Below, piece by piece: positions 5,722 through 51,424 of a stretch of DNA of 64,000 nt. The stretch's first letter is position 1. Every line of letters begins with the position of its first letter. A program made the position numbers and the translations under genes. The notes beneath the pieces are model-generated. The model was not told where the DNA came from, searched no databases, and worked only from the letters and a program-made list of their open reading frames with translations. Origin of the DNA: Vulcanimicrobiota bacterium (GTDB lineage Bacteria > Vulcanimicrobiota > Xenobia > Xenobiales > JADMJV01); contig JBFWNU010000001.1 of the NCBI GenBank assembly GCA_050250895.1, positions 224,001-288,000 on the forward strand. The letters run 5' to 3'.

Positions 5722-6323
5722 AGGCGGTGGCTGTGCGGGGTACCGACCTGCCCCACCAGTTGCACCCCGACGTGGCCGTGGCCCACCTGACGGTGGGCAG
5801 CCACGCCTGGCGCTTCGAGCGCGACCAGGTGACCCACATCACCGCCGGTCGGGCGCTCTGTGACGGCCTCTTGCTCGAACCCGACATGCTGGTGCACTTC
5901 AAGCAGGGCACGGCCGTCACGATCGAGGTGGACGAGCCACTCCACTACGTCTACATGCAGTGTGAAGGCGGGCCCGCCGCTCAGACGCCGGTGTTGCGCC
6001 AGGTCAACGGCAGCCTGCCCGAAAAGGACTGGGGTCCCATCCCCACCATGCTCGAGGGCGAGTCGCGCACCAGCGGCGTGCTGCTCTCGCGCGAGCCCGA
6101 CGGCCGGGCCGAGAGCGGCATCTGGATCTGCACCCCGGGAGTGTGGGCCTGTCACGTGACCCGTGACGAGCTGTGCCACTTCTTGCTGGGCCGCTGCACT
6201 TACACCTCGGATGAGGGCGAGGTGCTCGAGATCGTGCCCGACACCGTCGCCTTCTTTCCCCAGGATTGGCGCGGCACTTGCGCGGTCCACGAGACGGTGA
6301 GAAAGGTCTATTGCATCCGATGA
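5718..6323 (+). CDS. cupin domain protein (DUF861/EutQ-like)
   Basis: ESGIWICTPGVW...DELCHFLLGRCTY...FFPQDWRGTCAVHETVRKVY; GTGA overlap with the upstream stop. Confidence 0.85.
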   Translation: MKAVAVRGTDLPHQLHPDVAVAHLTVGSHAWRFERDQVTHITAGRALCDGLLLEPDMLVHFKQGTAVTIEVDEPLHYVYMQCEGGPAAQTPVLRQVNGSLPEKDWGPIPTMLEGESRTSGVLLSREPDGRAESGIWICTPGVWACHVTRDELCHFLLGRCTYTSDEGEVLEIVPDTVAFFPQDWRGTCAVHETVRKVYCIR

Positions 6324-7789
6324 GCGCCCATCACTTTCTCGGCGGGCTGGTGCCGGCTCAGGGAACGCCCCGCCCAGTGATAGACCCGGCCACCCTCGAG
6401 ACGGTGGGCTACATCGCCGACGCCACCGAAGCCGAGATGCAGGCAGCCTTCGCAGCCGCCGCGGCCGCTCTTCCCGCGTGGCCCAATCTCGACGGCAAGA
6501 CGCGGGCCAATTTTCTGCACAAGGTGGCCGAGGTCATCGAGAAAGGCAACTTGCGCCCCATCGCCGAGCTGATGAGCCGCGAGATGGGCAAGCCCTTTCC
6601 TGAAGCGATGGGAGAACTGGCCAATGTCGCTCCCATCTTTCGCTACTATGCCGAGATCGCTCGCGACGAGGCCGGCAAGGTGGCCGCTCCTATCCAGCCC
6701 GGCTCGTTCCAATACTCGCGCAGTTTTCCTTACGGCACCAGCCTGCACATCGTGCCCTTCAACTTTCCCATCCTGCTGTTGTGCTGGACTCTGGCCGCCT
6801 CGCTGGCCGCCGGCAATGTGGCCATCGTCAAGCCGGCCGAGCCCACCACTTTGTGCACCTGGGCCTTTCTCGAGCTGATCGCGGCGGTCTTGCCCCAGGG
6901 GGTGATCAGCGGCCTGGCCGGCGGAGCCGAAGTGGGCAAAGCCCTGGTCGCCTCAGAGCACACCCAGGTGGTGGCCTTCACCGGTTCGGTGGCGGCGGCC
7001 CGCTCGGTGGGGGTGGCCTGTGCCGAGCAATTCAAACCGTGTCTGCTCGAAGCCGGCGGCAGCGACCCGCTGTTGGTGTCGGACAAGTGCAACCTCGAGG
7101 TGGCCATCGCCGGCTCGGTCACGGCCGCCTTTCACCTGTCGGGCCAGATCTGCACCTCGGCCGAGCGCTTCATGGTGCATGAGGCCGTCCACGACCGCTT
7201 CGTCGAAGGTCTGGTGGCCGGGGCCAAAAAGCTTCGCATCGGCCCGGGGCTGGGCAAAAGCGAGCTCGGTCCGCTGGTGTCTGAAGCCGCCCGCAACAAG
7301 GTGGTGCGACTGGTCGAGGGGGCACTGGCCAAAGGCGCCCGCCTCGAGACGGGCGGGCGTATTCCGCCCGAGCACCCGAGCGGCTGGTTTTATGAACCGA
7401 CCGTGCTGACCGGCGTCACTCCCGAGATGGAAATCTTCCACGAAGAGGTCTTCGGTCCGGTGGCCTCGGTCTTGAAAGTGAACTCGTTTGACGAGGCCCT
7501 GCGGCTGGCCAACGACTCGCGCTTTGGCCTGGGGGCCTCGCTTTTTTCCAACGACCTGGCCGAATCACTGCGCTTTGTCGACGAGGTCGAGTCAGGCATG
7601 GCCTGGGTCAACAATCCCCTCATCGATAACGACGCCCTGCCCTTCGGCGGCTGGAAGTGGTCGGGGCTGGGGCGGGCTTTGGGGCGCGAGGGACTCAACG
7701 CCTTCCGGCGCACCAAGATGGCCGTCATCGATCCCGTGCCCAAGATTCACGACTGGTGGTATCCTTACTCCGACGAGGTCTTTTTCTAG
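6320..7789 (+). CDS. NAD(P)-dependent aldehyde dehydrogenase
   Basis: PFNFP, KPAE, FTGS, LEAGG, catalytic GQICTS and EEVFGP; ATGA overlap. Confidence 0.95.
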   Translation: MSAHHFLGGLVPAQGTPRPVIDPATLETVGYIADATEAEMQAAFAAAAAALPAWPNLDGKTRANFLHKVAEVIEKGNLRPIAELMSREMGKPFPEAMGELANVAPIFRYYAEIARDEAGKVAAPIQPGSFQYSRSFPYGTSLHIVPFNFPILLLCWTLAASLAAGNVAIVKPAEPTTLCTWAFLELIAAVLPQGVISGLAGGAEVGKALVASEHTQVVAFTGSVAAARSVGVACAEQFKPCLLEAGGSDPLLVSDKCNLEVAIAGSVTAAFHLSGQICTSAERFMVHEAVHDRFVEGLVAGAKKLRIGPGLGKSELGPLVSEAARNKVVRLVEGALAKGARLETGGRIPPEHPSGWFYEPTVLTGVTPEMEIFHEEVFGPVASVLKVNSFDEALRLANDSRFGLGASLFSNDLAESLRFVDEVESGMAWVNNPLIDNDALPFGGWKWSGLGRALGREGLNAFRRTKMAVIDPVPKIHDWWYPYSDEVFF

Positions 7790-36433: not shown

Positions 36434-37333
36434 TCAGCCCAAAAGGTGTTCGAAGAGGAGGAAAAAGACGCGGGCGTTGGGCAGGCTGTCGTACTGGAAG
36501 CGAATCTGACCGGAGCCAAAGAGGCGCCCCAGCCAACCGCTGTTCTCGAACTTCTCGCTGGTGAGAACGACGTAGCCCTTTTCGACGTCCAGCCCGCGCA
36601 AGTCGGACAGCGACCACTGCTCGGTGCCCGAGCCTTTGGTGAGGGCGAAGTGAGACTGGCCGATGTCGATGCGAATGCCGCCAGTTCGAATATTGAAGCT
36701 GACCGGCCGCCCCTGCTCGAGCTGAGCCAGGCAGCGTTTGAGATAGTGACGTGTCCAGGCGATTTCGGCTCCGTCGGCCAGGTAGAAATCGTGGCTGGTA
36801 TCGTCAGGAGGCCCATCTTTCTTAGAATATGAGCCGTTGAGCGAGAAGACATTGCGATTGGAGGCATCGTACCAGGAGTAGTCATAAGTGGTGCTGGTAT
36901 AGATACCGTTGGTGAAATGGCGCGTGGTGTTGACGCGCAGCTCCTCGGCTCTGGAAAACTCGCAGATCTGGCCTTTGGCGGTGGCCTGGCGGCTGCCCGA
37001 GAGACTGTAGGTTGCATAGCCCTCGGTGCCGATGTAGCTTAGCTTGCCACCAAAGCTCGTTCCGGCGACGCCCACCACGGTGCCCAGCCCGCCCCCGGCG
37101 AAAAAGAGCACGGTCGCCCCGGCGTCGATCCAGTTGCCGAAGACAAACCCAATCCCGGCGCAGGCCGCAGCGACCAGCGTGCTCCAGAAGAAGCGGCGCC
37201 CTGCCTCCATCGGCTCCTGGCTCTTCTTTAAAGAAGAGTAGCCCGACAACGGGTCGCCGATGGCAGGCGGTGGCGGTATGAAAAAGTCGGCCTCCGAGTC
37301 GACCGGCACGCCAGCATGGTTTACGTATGACAT
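36434..37333 (-). CDS. hypothetical membrane protein
   Basis: Two TM helices followed by a beta-rich domain; ATG at 37333 after AGGGGG. Confidence 0.7.
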   Translation of the reverse strand: MSYVNHAGVPVDSEADFFIPPPPAIGDPLSGYSSLKKSQEPMEAGRRFFWSTLVAAACAGIGFVFGNWIDAGATVLFFAGGGLGTVVGVAGTSFGGKLSYIGTEGYATYSLSGSRQATAKGQICEFSRAEELRVNTTRHFTNGIYTSTTYDYSWYDASNRNVFSLNGSYSKKDGPPDDTSHDFYLADGAEIAWTRHYLKRCLAQLEQGRPVSFNIRTGGIRIDIGQSHFALTKGSGTEQWSLSDLRGLDVEKGYVVLTSEKFENSGWLGRLFGSGQIRFQYDSLPNARVFFLLFEHLLG

Positions 37334-37412
37334 ACATCCCCCTGGTGGCTGGATTCGCTCGCCCGGGTTCCAACCCTTCGCAAGCAGGGCGTTCAGGAGG
37401 GAACAGATTCGG

Positions 37413-38342
37413 ATGATCGAACGTTCGTCGCCGATGAGATTAATTTCCGATTTTTCGATCAAACAGATAGATTCCGACTTTCTCATTTTCAAGCGTTTTG
37501 GAAAGTGCGTCTGCTCACTAGAGGGCGACACCGCACGACTTTTCCAACTCTACTATGAGGGAAAGACCCGACACCAAGCCGAGTCAGAACTTGGGCTTCC
37601 ATGCCTGCAAGCGGCCGAAGAACAACTGCGCGACCAGGGGTTACTCGCCCCTGACGTGTTACCTAGAATTCCCCAGGACCAGTTGACGAGGATCGAGCTC
37701 GCAAACGAGGTGCTGGTCTATCACCCTGTGCAAGGTACAGCCATGCTCCTCAACCAGACCATCGCCGCGTTGCTACCACAATGCGATGGTGAGACTACCG
37801 TCGAACTTGCCATCGACGCACTGAGCAAGAAATTCGAGATCGCGCCCGATACGGCCGAAGAGCTGCTTTGGGCAAGCCTGAAGGCGATGCGTGACCGGGG
37901 GCTGTTCCTGGCGCCGTTGCACCACGGATTGTCGCGACGGGCGTTTCTGAGCAGGTGGGCGGCTGCCGCCGCCCTGTTCCCGGTGATCGTCTCGGCCGCC
38001 GCTCCGCACGCAGCCGTTGCTGACAGTACGACATGCATCGTCAATGGAGATGCGGGTTGCCAGGCTCTCTTTCCGGGCTCGACCAGAGTCTTCACGACCT
38101 GCTGTCCGTGCACGGCGAATGCGACTCCCCCATGCCCCGGCGATGCAAACTGTCAACGACCCTATTTGAAAGATGGCAACAACTGCCTGGATGACACCCC
38201 CGACACCGGCGGCCTGACGGGCTGCTTTGTCTACATCGACTCCGGCCACCCGTTCGCTAACGCCCAAGATTCGTGCGCGGACGCCCGCAACTCGACTCAA
38301 GCCGACACCTTTGGCGGCTATGCCTGTTGCCGATGTCCGTGA
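37413..38342 (+). CDS. tandem PqqD/RRE domains fused to an RR leader and a Cys-rich C-terminal peptide
   Basis: Two three-strand/three-helix units (second: EVLVY...LLNQTIAALLPQCDGETTV...LKAMRDRGL), then LSRRAFLSRWAAAAALFPVIVS and a 12-Cys tail. Start 37413 or 37434. Confidence 0.82.
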   Translation: MIERSSPMRLISDFSIKQIDSDFLIFKRFGKCVCSLEGDTARLFQLYYEGKTRHQAESELGLPCLQAAEEQLRDQGLLAPDVLPRIPQDQLTRIELANEVLVYHPVQGTAMLLNQTIAALLPQCDGETTVELAIDALSKKFEIAPDTAEELLWASLKAMRDRGLFLAPLHHGLSRRAFLSRWAAAAALFPVIVSAAAPHAAVADSTTCIVNGDAGCQALFPGSTRVFTTCCPCTANATPPCPGDANCQRPYLKDGNNCLDDTPDTGGLTGCFVYIDSGHPFANAQDSCADARNSTQADTFGGYACCRCP

Positions 38343-39028
38343 AGACGCCCACTCCTGGCTCCGGGCGCTTTTCGAAGATTGGCCAGGGCCTCGTCGTTCA
38401 GCCGTTTTCCGACAGTATCGGCATCCTGGCTGATGAACCCTTGCTGGAGTCTATCGTGCAGGCCCTGCCGCCTGGCTGGAAAACACGAGAGACCGGCGAG
38501 TTCCTGGTCCGCATCGAACTGACCCAGGAGGGGGGTTCCTTCGTGATCAGGATCAATACTATCGTCAAGGCCAAAGCAAACAATCTCGCATCCGCACTGG
38601 CCCGGTTCCTCGAGGAGCTTCGCCTCCTGATCGTGCTACTCGAACATCAGCGCTTCTTTGTGAAAGCGCGACTATTGCGTCATCGCGAGGCAGCGGTGGT
38701 GGTGCTTGGTCAATTCGTGGCCGAGGTGGGGCTCAGCGAATGTAGCGCTGTTGCTTTTGATGTCAACGGTCGAGTCACCAGTCTAGAGGCTCCCGGGGAG
38801 CCGATGGAGGTGGTGGCCCTGGCTGAACTCGCTCCCTCGACGAGGGAGCCGTGGGAGAACCTCGGAGCGGCCAGAGCGGCGGCAAGCCTGTTCGAGGCAA
38901 AGCTGACCCCCCTGCGCGAAATCGGCCCCTGGCTTGACGTAATAGGCGACCTCGCCCAGGCTAGTCTGTGCCTTCGGATGCAACCCACGCCAGAGGCTTT
39001 CGAGCTACTCCGGCAAAGATTGGGCTGA
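38333..39028 (+). CDS. degenerate HPr kinase-related protein (Walker A absent)
   Basis: IGI...LPPGWK N-domain and L-E-x-L...FFVKARLL...AVVVLG pattern recall HprK-related proteins, but there is no GxxGxGK(S/T). Overlaps the upstream stop. Confidence 0.55.
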   Translation: MSVKTPTPGSGRFSKIGQGLVVQPFSDSIGILADEPLLESIVQALPPGWKTRETGEFLVRIELTQEGGSFVIRINTIVKAKANNLASALARFLEELRLLIVLLEHQRFFVKARLLRHREAAVVVLGQFVAEVGLSECSAVAFDVNGRVTSLEAPGEPMEVVALAELAPSTREPWENLGAARAAASLFEAKLTPLREIGPWLDVIGDLAQASLCLRMQPTPEAFELLRQRLG

Positions 39029-39085
39029 GTGCATCTCCCCCGAAAGAGGGAGGGAGAGACACATCGAGCATGAGAAGATGAAGGC

Positions 39086-39724
39086 ATGCCCATCCGTGTC
39101 TTGCTGGTCGACGATCACGCCATCGTGCGCGAGGGCCTGCGCATGCTGCTCAAGTTCGACCCTGACCTCGAGGTGGTGGGCGAAGCTTCAGACGGAGCCG
39201 AAGCCATCGAGCAAGCCCGTCAACTGACCCCCGACGTGGTCTTGATGGATCTACTCATGCCTCGGATGGACGGCATCGCCGCCACCGAGGCCATTCGCGA
39301 TGAGTTACCATCGGTGGAAGTGGTGGCCCTCACCAGCGTGCTCGAAGACGCCTCGGTGGTGGGCGCGGTCAAAGCCGGCGCCATCGGCTATCTGCTCAAG
39401 GACACCCGTGGAGACGATTTACGCCAGGCCATCAAAGCAGCCGCCGCCGGCCAGGTGCAACTGTCGCCGGCAGCCGCCAAGCGTCTGATGCGCGAACTCA
39501 AAGCCCCCTCGAGTCACGAGAGCCTGACCCCCCGCGAAGTCGAGGTCTTGCACCACCTGGCTCACGGTCTGTCCAACCGCGAGATCGCCGAACGCCTGGT
39601 GGTCGGCGAAGAAACGGTCAAATCTCACGTCTCGCACGTGCTGGCCAAGCTGGGGGCCCGCACCCGCACTCAGGCGGCCCTATTTGCCTGGCAGAAGGGG
39701 CTGGTGAGCCGCGATGCCTCTTGA
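39086..39724 (+). CDS. NarL/LuxR family response regulator
   Basis: LVDDH, DVVLMD, GYLLK; LTPREVEVL...VKSHVS HTH. Confidence 0.96.
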   Translation: MPIRVLLVDDHAIVREGLRMLLKFDPDLEVVGEASDGAEAIEQARQLTPDVVLMDLLMPRMDGIAATEAIRDELPSVEVVALTSVLEDASVVGAVKAGAIGYLLKDTRGDDLRQAIKAAAAGQVQLSPAAAKRLMRELKAPSSHESLTPREVEVLHHLAHGLSNREIAERLVVGEETVKSHVSHVLAKLGARTRTQAALFAWQKGLVSRDAS

Positions 39725-41174
39725 GCGCGCGCTCCAACTCGGCCCGACCTTCATGGCCGAATTGGCCAAGCTGACGCCAGCGGCCATGCTGTTGTTCGAC
39801 CAGCATCTCGAACCCATCGATTGCAACCCGGCCTTTGTGCGCCTGACCGGCCGCCAGCATGACAGTCAACCCTTCGAGTGCTTTAGCCGCGACGAACTCG
39901 AACGGGTGCGCGAGGCCCTGGAGCGACGCCAGGCCGATGAGCCGATCCGTTGGCCCGGGCGCGTCCAGACCCTGGACGGATACTGGCGCGAAGTCGAGAT
40001 TGTGGTCGTCTTCTTGATGGGCTACAGCCTGATGGTGATGCTCGACGTCACCGACTCGCGCCGGTTGGGGCGCAAACTCGAGGCTCTCAACCGATTCTCG
40101 AGCGCGGTGACGCTGTCCACCGGACTGGAAGCCACCCTGGATCTGCTGGCCGCCCAGGTGGTCGCGGCCACCGATGCGGTGGCGGCGGTGGTGCTGTTGC
40201 TCGACCCTGGCCCGCGAATCGATCGAGTCGGTCGAGCCGGCGTGCCCGGCGAGGTGCTAGAGGCGGCCTTTCAAATGTTCGCTAGCGGCATCAGGGTGCC
40301 CGCCTTCGAAGCCTACGAGACCGGCCAGACGCTGGTGGTGCCACCGCAGCAGCGAGAAGAGTTCTTGGCCGGCACTCGCCTGGGCGAACTGGTCGAGGCC
40401 CAGGGCTGGCAGCACCTGGTCTGCGTTCCCCTTGGCAAAGGGGTCATGAATTGCTTTTTCACCGAGCGCCTGCTGCCAACTCCCGACGACCTCTCGTTTC
40501 TCGAAACGCTGGGCCGATTCGCCACGGTGGCCATCGAGAACGCACGCCTCTTTGCCGAGGCCGAGGAGCGAGCCGTGGCCGAAGAACGCCAGCGGCTGGG
40601 AAGAGAATTGCACGACTCGGTCTCGCAGAGCCTCTACAGCATCGGCCTGGGCGCCCAGGCCGCCCTGGCCGCGCTCGAGGCCGGGTCACCCGACGAGACG
40701 CGCCAGACAATCGACTACATCCTGTCGCTGGCCCGCTCGGGTCTCGACGACATGCGCGCTCTGCTGTTCAAATTGCGACCCGAGGTCCTCGACGACGAAG
40801 GCCTGGTGGTCGCTCTCACCCGCCAGGCCGAATCGCTGCGGGTTCGTTACGGCTTGATTGTCGAGCTTGACCTGGGAGAAGAACCGCCACTTTCTCCCTC
40901 GATTCGACACGCTCTGTATCGCATCGCCAGCGAAGCCCTCCACAATGCCATCAAGCACTCGCGGGCCACCCGACTCAGAGTAAGTCTCAAGCAACGTCAA
41001 CGGCAGGTGGAACTCGAGATCGAAGACAACGGTGAGGGCTTCGTCCCTGAAGGTTGCAACGGAGGCCTGGGATTGACCACCATGCGCGAGCGAGCCGCCG
41101 AAGCCGGAGGGCAACTGCAGGTGCAGTCAGAGCCGGGTCAGGGAGCCCGGTTACTCACCACCATTCCGGTCTGA
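39714..41174 (+). CDS. PAS-GAF sensor histidine kinase (HisKA_3)
   Basis: ERQRLGRELHDSVSQ, EALHNAIKH, DNGEGF, GLGL. Confidence 0.95.
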   Translation: MPLERALQLGPTFMAELAKLTPAAMLLFDQHLEPIDCNPAFVRLTGRQHDSQPFECFSRDELERVREALERRQADEPIRWPGRVQTLDGYWREVEIVVVFLMGYSLMVMLDVTDSRRLGRKLEALNRFSSAVTLSTGLEATLDLLAAQVVAATDAVAAVVLLLDPGPRIDRVGRAGVPGEVLEAAFQMFASGIRVPAFEAYETGQTLVVPPQQREEFLAGTRLGELVEAQGWQHLVCVPLGKGVMNCFFTERLLPTPDDLSFLETLGRFATVAIENARLFAEAEERAVAEERQRLGRELHDSVSQSLYSIGLGAQAALAALEAGSPDETRQTIDYILSLARSGLDDMRALLFKLRPEVLDDEGLVVALTRQAESLRVRYGLIVELDLGEEPPLSPSIRHALYRIASEALHNAIKHSRATRLRVSLKQRQRQVELEIEDNGEGFVPEGCNGGLGLTTMRERAAEAGGQLQVQSEPGQGARLLTTIPV

Positions 41175-41630
41175 GGTTCTGCCTCTAGAGGTTACAGAAT
41201 CCTGCCGGTCTGGGCGTCACGAAGGAGTCGCCGACGATGGTCGTAATATTGTTCACCGCAGTCAGCGGGCCGCCATTTAGCATATCGAAGCGCTCGACAT
41301 CACAGTTAACGAAGCCGAAGTCGATCATGTCGAAGATGCAATTGAGGATGTCAAGGCAAACCCCAGTGCGACGAGCAGTCGAACCAGGTTCTTAAGGTAA
41401 TTCATTCACAACCCTTTCGAGTAAAGTAGACACAGGGGTTATCTTAACAAGCCTACCTTAAGGGTCTGAAAGAGCCTCGGCCATGTGGCCACCATGAATA
41501 GCCACATGGCGGTTTGCGCCTGGGAGGAAGGATTATTGTCCTCATCCCGACAATGAAGAAGCGCGGCCGGAGGACACGACCTCTCAAACAAGTCGCGATA
41601 AACTATCGGGGGAACCTCGTGCATCTCAAA

Positions 41631-42346: not shown

Positions 42347-45193
42347 GTGAAACAAAACATATGGATTTTGCCAATCCTGCTTGGGTTGCTGGCGCTGCCA
42401 GGCTGGGCGGGAGACGGCAACATCGACAACGGAAAACTCAACCTGACCGTCTTCTTCAACTACGACGAGCAGGACAAAGCCTCTTGGGAACAGCTCTTCA
42501 AAGATGCCAACCCGGTGATGTTCAAGGCCACCGACGGGCGCCTGACCTTCGGTGAGATACGCTTCACCGACTGCCCTGGCGCTCGCGCCAAGGCCGACAT
42601 CATCATCAACGATGGCGCCGGACGCGCCTTCGCCGACGGGGGAATCCCCGGCCTGGGAACCAACGGGCGCTTCATTCAGCTCTACAAGAACTCGAACAAG
42701 AACGAGCCGAAGACTCTGGTCCACGAACTTGGCCACTACGCCTTCGGCTGCTACGACGAATACAAAGGCCGTCGCTGGGCCTGGGCCGGAATGCCGCCCG
42801 CCTGGCAAACCGAGACCACCGGAGGTTCGGTGTGGTTCGACGGCACCGGCGACCCTGCCACCAACCCCTGGTTTTGCGCCACTCAGGCCGAAGCCAACGG
42901 CACGACCTCGTGCATCATGGACTTCGCCAACGGTTGGAAGCCGGGTCGCATGAACTTCTGTCTCGACGGCGCTCACGCCGATCACCATGTGACCAGCCGC
43001 GTGTCGGGCTCCAAGCGCTATATCACCGACCAGCAACAGGTCAACGGCCATGCCTGCTGGAACGAGGTGGCCGCGGCCGTGGGCGGAAACGTTCCCGCCT
43101 CACCTCCTAACAACACCAGCGCGGTCAACGCCAACCCGACCTTCAAGACGGTGGACGGCGACGCCTACAACATCTGTATCGACCGCTCCGGCAGTATGTC
43201 CGGCGACCGCATCGTCAAAGCCCGTCTGGGCGGCACCACCGTGGTCGACCTGGCTCGCACCATGATGGGCATGATGCCTGGCGACAACCTGGGCGTCACT
43301 TCCTTTAGCTCAGGCGCCTCGACCAACTTTGCGGTGACCGAGATGACGGCCGCCACCCAGGCCGCTGCCAAAGCCGCCATCGGAACGATCAATGCTAGTG
43401 GCGGAACCGACATCGGAGCCGGTGTGCGCCAGGCCCTGGCCGACTTGATGACGGCCCAGACCAACAACGGCGAAGAGTTCTGCTCTCGCACCGTCTTTCT
43501 GCTCTCGGACGGTCAGGATAGCACCAACGTGGCCGCGCTGGTGGCCGACATCCAGGCGGCCAAGGCCACCGTCCACGCCATTGCTATCGGCTCGGGCGCC
43601 GACTCGGCCAAACTCTCGGCCATCGCCACCGGTTCCGGCGGCAACTTCTTCTTTCTGCCCCGCCAGCAAGAAGAGGTCTCGGCCCGCGGCGTGTTCTTTC
43701 GCGTAGGCGAAGAAGCTCTGCCGGGCATCATGGCCACCCTCTTCAACGAGGCGCGGGGTGGCAGCCAGGTGGCCGGTATCGACGGCCAGGCTATCGCCGG
43801 TCAATCGACCCAACACACCTTGACCGTCGACGGCTTCGTCGAGCGGGCTACCTTCTTGCTGGTGTCGGCTAACGAAGCCGATCCGCTGAGCCTGGCCCTG
43901 ACCGACCCCAACGGCAATAACATCGACCTCAACGCACCCCCAGCGGGCGTCACCGTCTCGATCCAACAGGGCGCCGTGATTGTCGACGTCGTCAATCCCG
44001 CCGGTGGCGACTGGATCGCCACCGTCGATGCCACGGCCACGGCCGCCGACCAAAACTATGACCTGCGCTTGCTGGCGATTTCGCCCGGTCTCATCGTGAC
44101 CGCCCAGGTCGACAGCGCCGCCGTCACCTTCCCGGCACCCATTCTGGTTACCGCCCGGGTTTCGGCCGGCCAGGCCCTGACCAACATCACCCATACCGTC
44201 GAGGTCTCTGACCCGTCCGGCAATATCACCAATATCACCCTGAGTGACGACGGCGACCTGTCCAATGGTGACCTGGTAGCCAACGACGGTATCTACTCAG
44301 GCTATTTCAAAGACTACACCGACAACGGAACCTATACATTCACCATCACCTACGACGGCTCGAACGCCCAGTATGCCACCGGCATCCTGCCCGCCGAGCC
44401 GGGTGGAGACCCATTCAACACCGGCAGCGTGCCCAGTTTCACCCGAGTAGCCTCGGTGGCCACCCTGGTCGACCTGGTCCCCGGCGGAGGCGGCACGGCT
44501 CTGCTGCCTCCCGCCAACGTCCGCCAAACGACCGACGACTCCGACTCGATCACCATTACCTGGGATGACACCAGCGGCGGGACGGCCTCCTTCAAGATCC
44601 AGCGCAGCTCGGACGGAGTGAACTTCCAGACCATCGACACCGTGGGTCCGGGCACGACCACCTACACCGACAACAGCCCCGGCGCAGGCAACTTCTTCTA
44701 CCAGGTCGTGGCTAACGTCACCGGCGTGGGCGACTCGCCGCCGTCCGAAGTGACCCAGGTCAACTTTGAAGACCTGGAGATGGCTCTGCAAGCCTTCCTC
44801 ACCGGGGGCGGCCAGACCGGCGGTGGAGTGAGCGGTTCGAGCGGTGGCACCAACCTCGACGACTTCTCTGGTTCGTCGTTCGGTTGCTTCATCGCCACCG
44901 CTGCTTACGGCTCGTACCTCAATCCCCATGTGGCCGCCCTGCGGGACTTCCGCGACGACTATCTCTTGACCAACCGCCCCGGCCGGGCCGTGGTCGACTT
45001 CTACTATCGCAACTCGCCGCCCATCGCCGAGAGGATCAGCCAATCGCCGATGCTGATGGGCCTGACCCGATTGGCACTCACCCCCATCGTCTACTCGGTG
45101 GAATACCCGCTGTTGCTCGTGTTGGCCCTCGGCTTCGTGCCCGCCTGCTGGCTATATCGACGCCGCCGACGCCTGGCACTTGCCAGACAGTAG
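42347..45193 (+). CDS. CLCA-like zinc metalloprotease + vWA + beta/choice-of-anchor X-like + FnIII + CFI-box-CTERM surface protein
   Basis: [26 protein letters not shown] and LLSDG (MIDAS), [13 protein letters not shown], Fn[28 protein letters not shown] + TM + RRRRR. Confidence 0.88.
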
Positions 45194-50216: not shown

Positions 50217-50768
50217 GTGAGGATCCCATCGGTCAAAAAAGACCAGCTGGCCGGTTATCTCCAACGGCAGCGCCAAACGTTGCAAGAGAGCGACCTGCCG
50301 GAGCCCCGTCGAGGGCAGGCGATTCGACTGGTCGAGCGCGATCTAGCCCTGCTTCAGGGCGCCCGCGGCGAGACGGTCGAGCAAATGCGCGCGAACCTGG
50401 CTCTGGGACGCAGCCTGGTTCACGGAGCCGCACTCACCATCGGCGCCGGGGCCGTGGCGGGGGCCTGCCTGGCCCTGACCGGAGCTATCTCGGGTCGCGA
50501 TTTCTCTCTCGCCTTCGCAGGGCTGGGCGCCCTGGGTGTGGCCACCATGGCCGTGGCTACCTTTGGGGTGCAAAAGCCCGCCGTGGGGGAAGTACTCGAC
50601 AGCCTGGACTCGCGCATCCAGAGCTTGCAGGCCATCGCGGTGGACTCCCGCCACCAGGTCGAAGAGCTCCTCCAACCCGCGCCCGTCGCCGATATTCAGA
50701 TCGACGACGAAGGCGTGCAGCTGGGCGATGTCTTTCTGCCCATCGAGCGCGACAACAGCTATTTCTAA
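50217..50768 (+). CDS. hypothetical membrane protein
   Basis: Two Gly/Ala-rich TM helices flanked by coiled segments. Confidence 0.7.
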   Translation: MRIPSVKKDQLAGYLQRQRQTLQESDLPEPRRGQAIRLVERDLALLQGARGETVEQMRANLALGRSLVHGAALTIGAGAVAGACLALTGAISGRDFSLAFAGLGALGVATMAVATFGVQKPAVGEVLDSLDSRIQSLQAIAVDSRHQVEELLQPAPVADIQIDDEGVQLGDVFLPIERDNSYF

Positions 50769-51424
50769 CAGTCGTGGGTTATCGTGGTGGTAAAGGTGTC
50801 GGTGTCGGTTGGCCCACACGGTCCCTGCACCCGGAAAGTCACGTCAGTGCTACCCGCGCTTAAGAAGGTGAAGCTGAACATCGATTGGGTGGCGCTGGAG
50901 AATTCGAAAGTCCCGTCATCACCGATGTCGACGGCATACTCGCAAATCATGCAGGTGTGGGTCGAGCCGGAGAGGTCCCAGGTATGCGTCCTGGTGCCCG
51001 TGCAGGTATCCGTGAACCCAAGGGTGGGAGGGGCGGTGGGACAGGGGCAACTCGAGGCCGAAGCGGCCGCCGCCGGAGTGGTCACTGACGCCATCAGCGG
51101 CAGGACGGCCGCAGCCGCTCCCCAGCGCCGCAAGAAATCGCGCCGACTGACCTGACTGGGAAAGCAATCCGAGACCAGTCCTCGGCCGTGCAGTTCGGTT
51201 AAAGTCATGGCCACCAACTCATCAGCGGCTTCTGAGGGCAGCCCGAGGTGGTGGGCCAATTGCCGGGCCACCTCGGCCCGGCTGCGCCGACCGTCGCTGA
51301 ATCCCCACACCAGGGCGGCGGTGGGATTGAGGTTGTGGACCTTGCCCCCATCGGGCTCCATCAACAGCACTTCTTCACCGACCTGGGTGGCCAGCACCCG
51401 GGTATTCGCTTTCGGCATCTTCAT
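50765..51424 (-). CDS. PqqD/RRE domain fused to an RR leader and a Cys-containing PKD-like C-terminal domain
   Basis: EEVLLM...VHNLNPTAALVWGFSDGRRS...LTELHGRGLV, then VSRRDFLRRWGAAAAVLPLMASVTTPAAAASASSCPC; DLSGS..YAVDIGDDGTFE PKD-like; AGGAG ribosome-binding site. Confidence 0.85.
   Translation of the reverse strand: MKMPKANTRVLATQVGEEVLLMEPDGGKVHNLNPTAALVWGFSDGRRSRAEVARQLAHHLGLPSEAADELVAMTLTELHGRGLVSDCFPSQVSRRDFLRRWGAAAAVLPLMASVTTPAAAASASSCPCPTAPPTLGFTDTCTGTRTHTWDLSGSTHTCMICEYAVDIGDDGTFEFSSATQSMFSFTFLSAGSTDVTFRVQGPCGPTDTDTFTTTITHDC

Follow-up and report, generated by a model that had tools for sequence, protein, structure and literature searches.

The P0001 locus

The stretch examined here, referred to below as the window, comprises 64,000 nucleotides (nt) of contig JBFWNU010000001.1 (positions 224,001 to 288,000, forward strand) in the GenBank assembly GCA_050250895.1 of a Vulcanimicrobiota bacterium. 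It contains a gene for a protein of 309 amino acids (aa), denoted P0001, in which two tandem domains of the PqqD type, the fold of the recognition elements (RREs) of RiPPs (peptides made by the ribosome and modified after translation), are followed by an S-R-R-A-F-L motif, a hydrophobic region, the sequence A-V-A-D-S and a Cys-rich tail (Table 1). An earlier note, made from the sequence alone, had described this succession of PqqD-like units, SRR stretch and Cys-rich tail ending in YACCRCP, and our analysis confirms both the layout and the terminus; the fusion recurs in all 150 relatives inspected, and, judging from the sequences, conservation of the motif layout among these relatives is far beyond chance. 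The note had counted 12 Cys residues in the tail, whereas we find 13 in its 104 aa (residues 206-309), with 4 more in residues 1-205. Although the open frame extends further upstream (37260..38342), the ATG at 37413 is favored over a start at 37260 because a Shine-Dalgarno-like sequence lies 10 nt upstream of it; the start position of the relatives P0003 and P0004 is equivalent to this ATG.

Table 1. Features of the P0001 locus and a second family member, in window coordinates
Feature	Position	Strand	Basis and remarks
Shine-Dalgarno-like sequence AGGAGGGA	37395..37402	+	Read from sequence; 10 nt before ATG at 37413
P0001 gene, 309 aa	37413..38342	+	
RRE/PqqD-like unit 1 (aa 8-81)	37434..37655	+	hhalign, AlphaFold, VIA-align
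RRE/PqqD unit 2 (aa 84-168)	37662..37916	+	Pfam PF05402, VIA-align
Internal Tat-type signal (aa 173-205), stretch LSRRAFLSRWAAAAALFPVIVSAAAPHAAVADS	37929..38027	+	Motif conservation, AlphaFold, covariation
Cys-rich C-terminal domain (aa 206-309, 13 Cys, ends GYACCRCP) and stop codon	38028..38342	+	Sequence, profile, AlphaFold
Degenerate HPr-kinase-like open reading frame (231 aa)	38333..39028	+	hhalign; its ATG overlaps the P0001 stop by 10 nt
LuxR/GerE-type response regulator	39086..39724	+	Pfam Response_reg E 4.9e-28, GerE E 3.1e-19; 58 nt downstream
GAF + HisKA_3 histidine kinase	39714..41174	+	Pfam
VWA protein (948 aa), choice-of-anchor X + CFI-box-CTERM sorting domain	42347..45193	+	NF041770, 97.6 bits
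Second family member, 217 aa from ATG at 51418	50765..51424	-	RRE+signal profile E 3.4e-35

RRE domains are adaptors that pass leader peptides to RiPP enzymes. Unit 2 of P0001 matches the Pfam family PqqD (PF05402) over residues 99-164 (E = 1.7e-8; 35.1 bits vs a cut-off of 23.4), and this is the only Pfam match of the protein at E ≤ 1. Unit 1, which has no Pfam match at this threshold, was identified by profile and structure comparison. Its profile, derived from 17 tandem members, aligned with the unit 2 profile with an hhalign probability of 99.3% (E = 3.8e-20, 73 columns), and AlphaFold modeled three strands and three helices in each of the units at predicted local distance difference test (pLDDT) values of 92-97 (92-96 for unit 1). 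In VIA-align comparisons, unit 1 (model residues 8-81) matched TbiB1 (5v1u; Z 10.2, root-mean-square deviation [rmsd] 1.7, 74 residues aligned) and the lasso B1 protein 6jx3 (Z 9.8), and unit 2 (model residues 79-167) matched the PqqD structures 5sxy (Z 7.5, rmsd 2.5, 86 aligned) and 3g2b (Z 6.6). Foldseek concurs, with 5v1u_B as a match (E = 2.3e-4, template modeling [TM] score 0.77). The VIA-align matches cover model residues 3-168 only and so say little about how the Cys domain folds. NCBIfam yielded sub-threshold PqqD-type matches only, the best of these being TIGR04353 (19.7 bits vs a cut-off of 35). Both PqqD-like units of the earlier note are thus accounted for, one by Pfam and the other by hhalign, AlphaFold and VIA-align, and its proviso that the N-terminal domains might not match PqqD did not come to bear.

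A conserved leader with variable tails

Signals of the twin-arginine translocation (Tat) pathway are normally N-terminal tags, sometimes guarded by separate chaperones. In P0001, an S-R-R-x-F-L motif, hydrophobic region and AxA sequence occupy an internal position, just as first described: the motif begins at residue 174 of 309, and at approximately residue 80-110 in relatives with a single RRE. The signal reads S-R-R-A-F-L-S, continues with a hydrophobic region (mean Kyte-Doolittle hydropathy 1.7) that includes a conserved F/L-P-V-I-x-S sequence and P198, and ends in A-V-A-D-S. Profile search of 1.84 billion protein representatives returned 9298 matches at E ≤ 1e-3, a number that falls to 5045 at 1e-10 and to 81 at 1e-30. 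The best 150 of the representatives matched by this profile, to which the conservation counts given here refer, all contain an RRE, tandem in 17 of them, with RR and a hydrophobic stretch after it. Alignment shows the first Arg to be invariant (150/150) and the second to be Arg in 148 sequences and Lys in 2; Ser or Thr precedes the RR in 112, Phe or Leu stands at +2 in 112 and Leu at +3 in 103. A203 is conserved in 146 of the 150 and S205 likewise in 146, and P190 and P198, both inside the hydrophobic stretch, are nearly invariant. The longest run after the RR that is free of charged residues, Asn, Gln and His has a median length of 20 aa, and the median distance from the RR to S205 is 29 aa. 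Given this distance, the two conserved Pro residues and the S/T-R-R-x-F/L-L pattern, the stretch is signal-like rather than membrane-anchor-like. The genome to which the window belongs (G000) contains one tatC (213.9 bits) and three tatA/B/E matches.

Behind this leader, the tails of the 150 relatives are 0 to 299 aa long, with a median of 95.5. The number of Cys residues in the tail is even in 117 relatives, odd in 19 and zero in 14, and some of the tails are Pro/Thr-rich or Gly-rich linkers. Mean pairwise identity is higher in the RRE+signal part than in the tail, both among the 150 sequences (0.35 vs 0.27) and in a set of 18 (0.40 vs 0.22). On account of this difference, and of the range of tail lengths, the family displays the combination of conserved leader and variable core that is expected of RiPP precursors. 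The Cys domain of P0001 itself was modeled by AlphaFold with block pLDDT values of 69-92; an Atlas search seeded with residues 205-309 gave no usable feature match, and the structure rows were at TM 0.26-0.41. A profile of this domain detected 17 open reading frames (ORFs) in the window genome at E ≤ 8.3e-6, 3 of them without an RRE. Two near-identical plus-strand ORFs (G000:C1:3776587-3777177 and 3779151-3779762) carry a homologous Cys-rich domain behind a hydrophobic stretch and have no RRE, the RR being replaced (…DIDFLATAG…); these may be decayed or re-purposed copies. Elsewhere in the family, P0115 (151 aa) and similar Acidobacteriota-type members have a tail of about 30 aa with the spacing C-x6-C-x7-CC-x4-C-x4-C, which we take to resemble that of an inhibitor cystine knot.

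The RRE+signal profile, when run on the six-frame ORFs of the 9.5 Mb window genome, detected 27 ORFs at E ≤ 1e-8 (a protein search gave 17 matches), so that the listing of genomic copies and cargoes that had been suggested in the earlier note yields 27 copies; three of the paralogs have short Thr-rich tails in place of the Cys-rich domain. The second member within the window has one RRE, an SRRDFL signal, the sequence AAASAS and an unrelated 7-Cys tail ending in THDC; it sits between two large ORFs, one of which was scanned and has no Pfam match. Across the phylum of the window genome, matches at E ≤ 1e-8 are present in 32 of the 201 genomes sampled, counting G000, and are concentrated in two families with large genomes (10 of 15 and 4 of 5 genomes, respectively); as at most 14 candidates were scored per genome, copy numbers from this survey are lower bounds. 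One subfamily is common in records labeled Blastocatellia, Pyrinomonadaceae and Acidobacteriota, with a few from Binatia, Methylomirabilis and Nitrospinota. It was sampled with the pattern [HN][KTQ]AHCLNxTA, taken from a 6-row alignment; 282 of the 284 pattern matches were confirmed and 76 loci were kept, so this Acidobacteriota-type sample represents that one subfamily. The family is unnamed in the family libraries searched, and the annotation of one relative says 'PqqD family protein' only. A literature search, with subscription journals largely outside its coverage, turned up no paper describing the fusion of an RRE with a Tat-type signal.

Gene neighborhoods of P0001 and its relatives

Among the 76 Acidobacteriota-type loci, 49 contain an HprK-like gene and 55 an NTP_transf_5 gene, and the two occur together in 40 of the 66 loci in which the family gene was placed by the ORF caller. 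In 44 of 46 placed cases, the HprK-like gene is the immediate upstream neighbor of the family gene and shares its strand, the median gap being 76 nt. A fusion of MauE with a double thioredoxin fold was found in 17 of the 76 loci, and Wzy_C in 11. These names rest on 3 representatives per main cluster, the cluster representatives matching TIGR04352 at E = 1e-13 to 1e-16 (below the cut-off) and PF14907 (NTP_transf_5) at E = 1e-26 to 1e-31. The fusion protein, exemplified by L108:6426-7970 and L058:5374-6918, is 515 aa long and joins a MauE/DoxX membrane domain to two thioredoxin-fold (AhpC/TSA, Redoxin) domains. In lasso peptide systems, HPr-kinase homologues phosphorylate the C-terminal Ser of the precursor, and this phosphate is extended with hexose by a nucleotidyltransferase (PMC8498205).

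In genomes of the window's own phylum other than G000, 8 of 30 loci have an HprK-like gene at a distance of no more than 1.5 kb from the family gene, and 3 of 30 have an NTP-like gene. In the window genome, 3 of the 27 copies have an HprK-like neighbor, in addition to P0001 with its degenerate ORF. Two of these three are Thr-tail copies that also have sulfotransferases and a methyltransferase as neighbors. At L011 (G000:C1:891249-904280), the locus of this genome that most resembles a cassette, two tandem short members with Thr-rich tails and no Cys (ORFs 6118-6513 and 6598-7029) follow a methyltransferase gene and precede an HprK-like gene and two Sulfotransfer_3 genes. No equivalog-level match to TIGR04352 or TIGR04353 was found in the window genome (best scores 54.9 bits vs 200 and 26.7 bits vs 35, respectively), and no convincing separate Tat-signal precursor was seen beside three other HprK/PqqD cassettes of this genome.

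The ORF that overlaps the end of the P0001 gene aligns with A4, the HprK-like neighbor family, with an hhalign probability of 92.3% (E = 5.5e-7, 139 columns), and a genome search with A4 gave a match at window positions 38378-38713 (E = 0.007). Its P-loop region is absent, the GRSFSGKT columns being gapped in the hhalign alignment. The ORF has no Pfam match and no NCBIfam match at E ≤ 10, and none of 15 genomes from the same family gave a match to it at E ≤ 1e-5.

Further genes around P0001 encode DabA, an ABC-2 permease, two ABC ATPases, HlyD and OEP, with the ABC, HlyD and OEP genes all on the minus strand. The 365-aa ORF at 36434..37531 on the same strand has no family match and contains a Gly/Ala-rich hydrophobic segment; since the ORF in its longest form reaches into the start of the P0001 gene, its true start is probably further in. 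On the 3' side, the degenerate ORF is followed by the genes for the LuxR-type regulator, which is possibly in the same operon as P0001, the GAF-HisKA_3 kinase, a DUF6438 protein and the VWA protein. Scanning positions 36900-41400 for promoters and terminators yielded 1 promoter-like site, on the minus strand, and 3 terminator-like sites, vs 2.8 expected, and is uninformative. A search for sequencing runs covering 37200-39100 listed none. Across 17 paralog loci, kinase/regulator genes occur near 3 (that of P0001 and 2 others), no neighbor gene family is common to more than 4, and Pfam analysis of 89 neighboring ORFs indicates unrelated contexts. In agreement with the remark in the earlier note that radical SAM, YcaO and lanthionine enzymes are absent nearby, the 15 ORFs scanned from 28138 to 50033 include none of these. 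The note's further statement that this is not a standard RiPP cluster stands for the P0001 locus, but the family does have the recurrent HprK-like/NTP_transf_5 partnership.

A candidate self-chaperoned export precursor

The proposal in the earlier note that the RRE binds the internal leader in cis was examined with AlphaFold and covariation analysis. AlphaFold was run with a 19-row and with a 150-row alignment. With 19 rows, residues 185-222 were below pLDDT 50; with 150 rows, the whole chain reached a pLDDT of 88.6 and a predicted TM score (pTM) of 0.74, and the signal was drawn as two short helices (175-181 and 183-188) and a beta-strand (192-196), with block pLDDT values of 82-87 over residues 171-200. 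As modeled, the signal is unlike the usual free signal peptide or membrane helix. Covariation was computed as mutual information with average product correction for 247 sequences (filtered at 85% identity) and 101 columns, 18 of the 119 columns having been dropped because gap-rich columns (139-145 and 205-208) dominated earlier runs. The pair 111-194, which connects RRE strand 3 with the leader strand and is mostly His-Ser, ranked second, among plausible intradomain contacts such as 130-153, 104-111 and 133-152, and the top 30 pairs include the RRE-leader pairs 121-178, 154-189, 152-178, 121-196 and 150-181, which involve helix 3 (150-154) and helix 1 (121). Strand 3 and helix 3 of RREs form the known leader groove, where the leader is bound as an added strand. 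Moreover, the net charge of the RRE is negative in 136 of the 150 relatives (median -5) and faces the basic RR region. Cis binding of the signal by the RRE of P0001 is thus supported in silico only, by the modeled strand and by the 111-194 covariation, the latter being of a kind that cannot separate cis from trans binding.

Taken together, the evidence tips, by a modest measure, towards P0001 being the precursor of a self-chaperoned, Tat-exported, signal-peptidase-released, disulfide-rich mini-protein, with a leader made up of RRE domains and a twin-arginine signal. An export-type cargo is suggested by the mostly even Cys counts, the Pro/Thr- or Gly-rich linker tails and the neighboring genes for MauE + thioredoxin fusions. 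In the cytoplasm, according to the model and the covariation, the second RRE would hold the signal core (F/L-P-V-I-x-S) as an added strand in its strand-3/helix-3 groove and so mask the signal. The gene context suggests that in the ancestral cassettes the RRE-leader unit would have served as a handle for the HprK-like kinase and NTP_transf_5 before export, that the kinase gene has probably decayed at the P0001 locus, and that most of the 27 copies now appear to stand alone. Once let go, the signal would engage TatABC, the RRE part presumably staying in the cytoplasm, and signal peptidase I would cut at A-V-A / A-D-S and so release the 13-Cys fragment of some 104 aa, which would oxidize outside the cytoplasm. 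More tentative, and in our view possible rather than probable, is the specific role of the RRE as an intramolecular Tat-signal chaperone that releases the signal only after cytoplasmic phosphorylation or nucleotidyl/glycosyl transfer, where HprK-like/NTP_transf_5 partners are present.

Several observations weigh against this interpretation. The signal of P0001 is preceded by 172 residues and hence is not N-terminal, and we know of no tested Tat case with folded domains ahead of the signal. No Tat-signal profile in Pfam or NCBIfam matched at E ≤ 1, such short profiles being weak and most weak matches being dropped by the HMMER filters, and a basic residue is present within the last 8 positions before S205 in only 30 of the 150 relatives. 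Regarding the cargo, the number of Cys residues in the tail of P0001 is odd, and 7 of the 150 relatives have tails of 15 aa or less, which a cargo-delivery role fits poorly unless the records are truncated; P0073, P0087 and P0113 stop at the A-x-A-x-S site or no more than 3 residues from it and have no cargo, being either truncated records or an RRE+signal module with its own role. The C-terminal residue is not consistently Ser in the family (Pro in 39, Thr in 20 and Ser in 14 of 143), so a target of the lasso type is not obviously present. As for the partners, 23 of the 27 copies in the window genome have no kinase nearby and there is no NTP_transf_5 in the window. With respect to cis binding, the strand 192-196 is bonded according to DSSP, but the model output does not name its partner, which could be the Cys domain. 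The sequences available for covariation are few, subfamily structure can mimic covariation, and RRE-by-leader pairs, which make up 43% of all pairs, are not enriched among the top pairs.

Of the alternatives, the one that survives best, although it appears unlikely, is an uncleaved type II membrane protein, with the hydrophobic stretch as a signal-anchor, the RREs in the cytoplasm and the Cys domain outside as a sensor or binding module that perhaps works with the adjacent two-component system. The internal position of the hydrophobic segment and the length of its uncharged run agree with such a topology, as do the LuxR-type regulator and HisKA_3 kinase genes within 60 nt and the kinase/regulator genes near other paralogs, and the near-tailless relatives would be tail-anchored RRE proteins. 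However, the A-x-S/A-x-A sequence kept in 146 of the 150 relatives and the two conserved Pro residues are typical of a cleaved signal and not of a stable helix, AlphaFold does not draw a single continuous helix in the signal stretch, and tails of such different lengths with unrelated folds are unlike a sensor family.

A shade more doubtful still is a cytoplasmic precursor of the RiPP type, in which RRxFL...AxA would be only a recognition sequence for the RRE, the Cys part would be modified or would bind metal, and any export would proceed through an ABC exporter. The full S/T-R-R-x-F-L, hydrophobic region and A-x-A/S grammar, found across thousands of proteins, is hard to reconcile with this scheme, as are the MauE/ResA-type thiol-disulfide oxidoreductase fusions that adjoin the family gene in the Acidobacteriota-type sample and the tails that are Pro/Thr linkers; nor was a C39 peptidase or a double-glycine motif seen. 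Its merits are that the RRE-leader covariation and the strand model require no export, that the ABC-2/HlyD/OEP system lies divergently upstream of P0001, with ABC exporters near 2 other paralogs (L014 and L021), and that CxxC-type spacings in the tails could bind metal. Finally, an artefact, whereby a PqqD gene and a Tat-signal gene are read through or an internal TTG start before the SRR gives a normal Tat precursor, is very improbable: two TTG codons do lie 3 and 7 codons before the RR, but the fusion is in frame in the 27 paralogs and in all 150 relatives inspected, with no conserved Met or start before the RR.

If the RRE does act as such an intramolecular Tat-signal chaperone, with release of the signal only after a cytoplasmic step, the family would constitute a new and very large class of export-coupled, RiPP-like secreted mini-proteins, the unexplained HprK/PqqD/nucleotidyltransferase cassettes would gain their substrate, and the 27 copies in the window genome would represent a diversified secreted arsenal with one shared leader. 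An RRE-Tat fusion in thousands of proteins from several phyla suggests an unrecognised gating of the export of small disulfide-rich proteins, and the family is a concrete candidate for the substrate of HprK-like/PqqD/nucleotidyltransferase gene sets outside lasso peptides. New stable mini-protein scaffolds might be drawn from the variable Cys-rich tails, in some of which the spacing is knottin-like. What this window adds is the tandem RRE, the mostly orphan expansion to 27 copies, the apparently decayed kinase partner and the support from covariation and the deep alignment for an RRE-signal contact.

Among the closest known systems is HPr-rel-A (TIGR04352, HprK-related kinase A, and TIGR04353, PqqD-family peptide chaperone), in which a PqqD-type RRE is likewise paired with an HPr-kinase-like P-loop protein. 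TIGR04353 is the best or near-best NCBIfam match of P0001 and its relatives, and the neighboring kinases match TIGR04352; however, P0001 stays below the TIGR04353 cut-off, as noted above, the kinases score 48-58 bits vs a cut-off of 200, the RRE of P0001 is fused to a Tat-type signal and cargo, and the kinase-like ORF of the window is devoid of a P-loop. The lasso B1 RREs with HPr-kinase and nucleotidyltransferase tailoring (paeninodin and pseudomycoidin; PMC8498205) are similar in that TbiB1 and 6jx3 are the best structural matches of P0001 and in that its relatives hold the same trio of RRE, HprK homologue and NTP_transf_5, with sulfotransferases beside two short paralogs. Unlike in lasso systems, there is no lasso cyclase or B2 protease here, the substrate is fused to the RRE, and an export signal precedes the cargo, a Cys-rich domain of 100 aa without a conserved C-terminal Ser.

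Three further comparisons concern the signal, the leader and the cargo. The Tat signal-binding chaperones TorD, DmsD and NapD are cytoplasmic proteins that hold the signal until the cargo is ready. P0001 shares with these systems S-R-R-x-F-L, the hydrophobic region, A-x-A and the idea of signal holding, but its proposed chaperone has the RRE fold and is part of the same polypeptide, N-terminal to the signal, and its cargo has no known cofactor. NHLP/Nif11-type long-leader RiPP precursors, reportedly described by Haft and co-workers in 2010, are said to have leaders ending in a double-glycine site that is cut by a C39 ABC exporter; they resemble the P0001 family in that the conserved leader has the size of a domain, each genome has many scattered paralogs and the Cys-rich cores vary, and differ from it in that the leaders are not RRE folds and are released by the double-glycine/C39 route. 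Lastly, the small subunit of methylamine dehydrogenase, MauA, is a small, disulfide-rich protein with a long twin-arginine-type signal and disulfide helpers of the MauE/MauD type. The MauE + thioredoxin fusions of the relatives' loci, with their Pfam MauE and NCBIfam MauD matches, recall this arrangement, whereas P0001 has no sequence similarity to MauA and the window contains neither tryptophan tryptophylquinone (TTQ) genes nor MauE.

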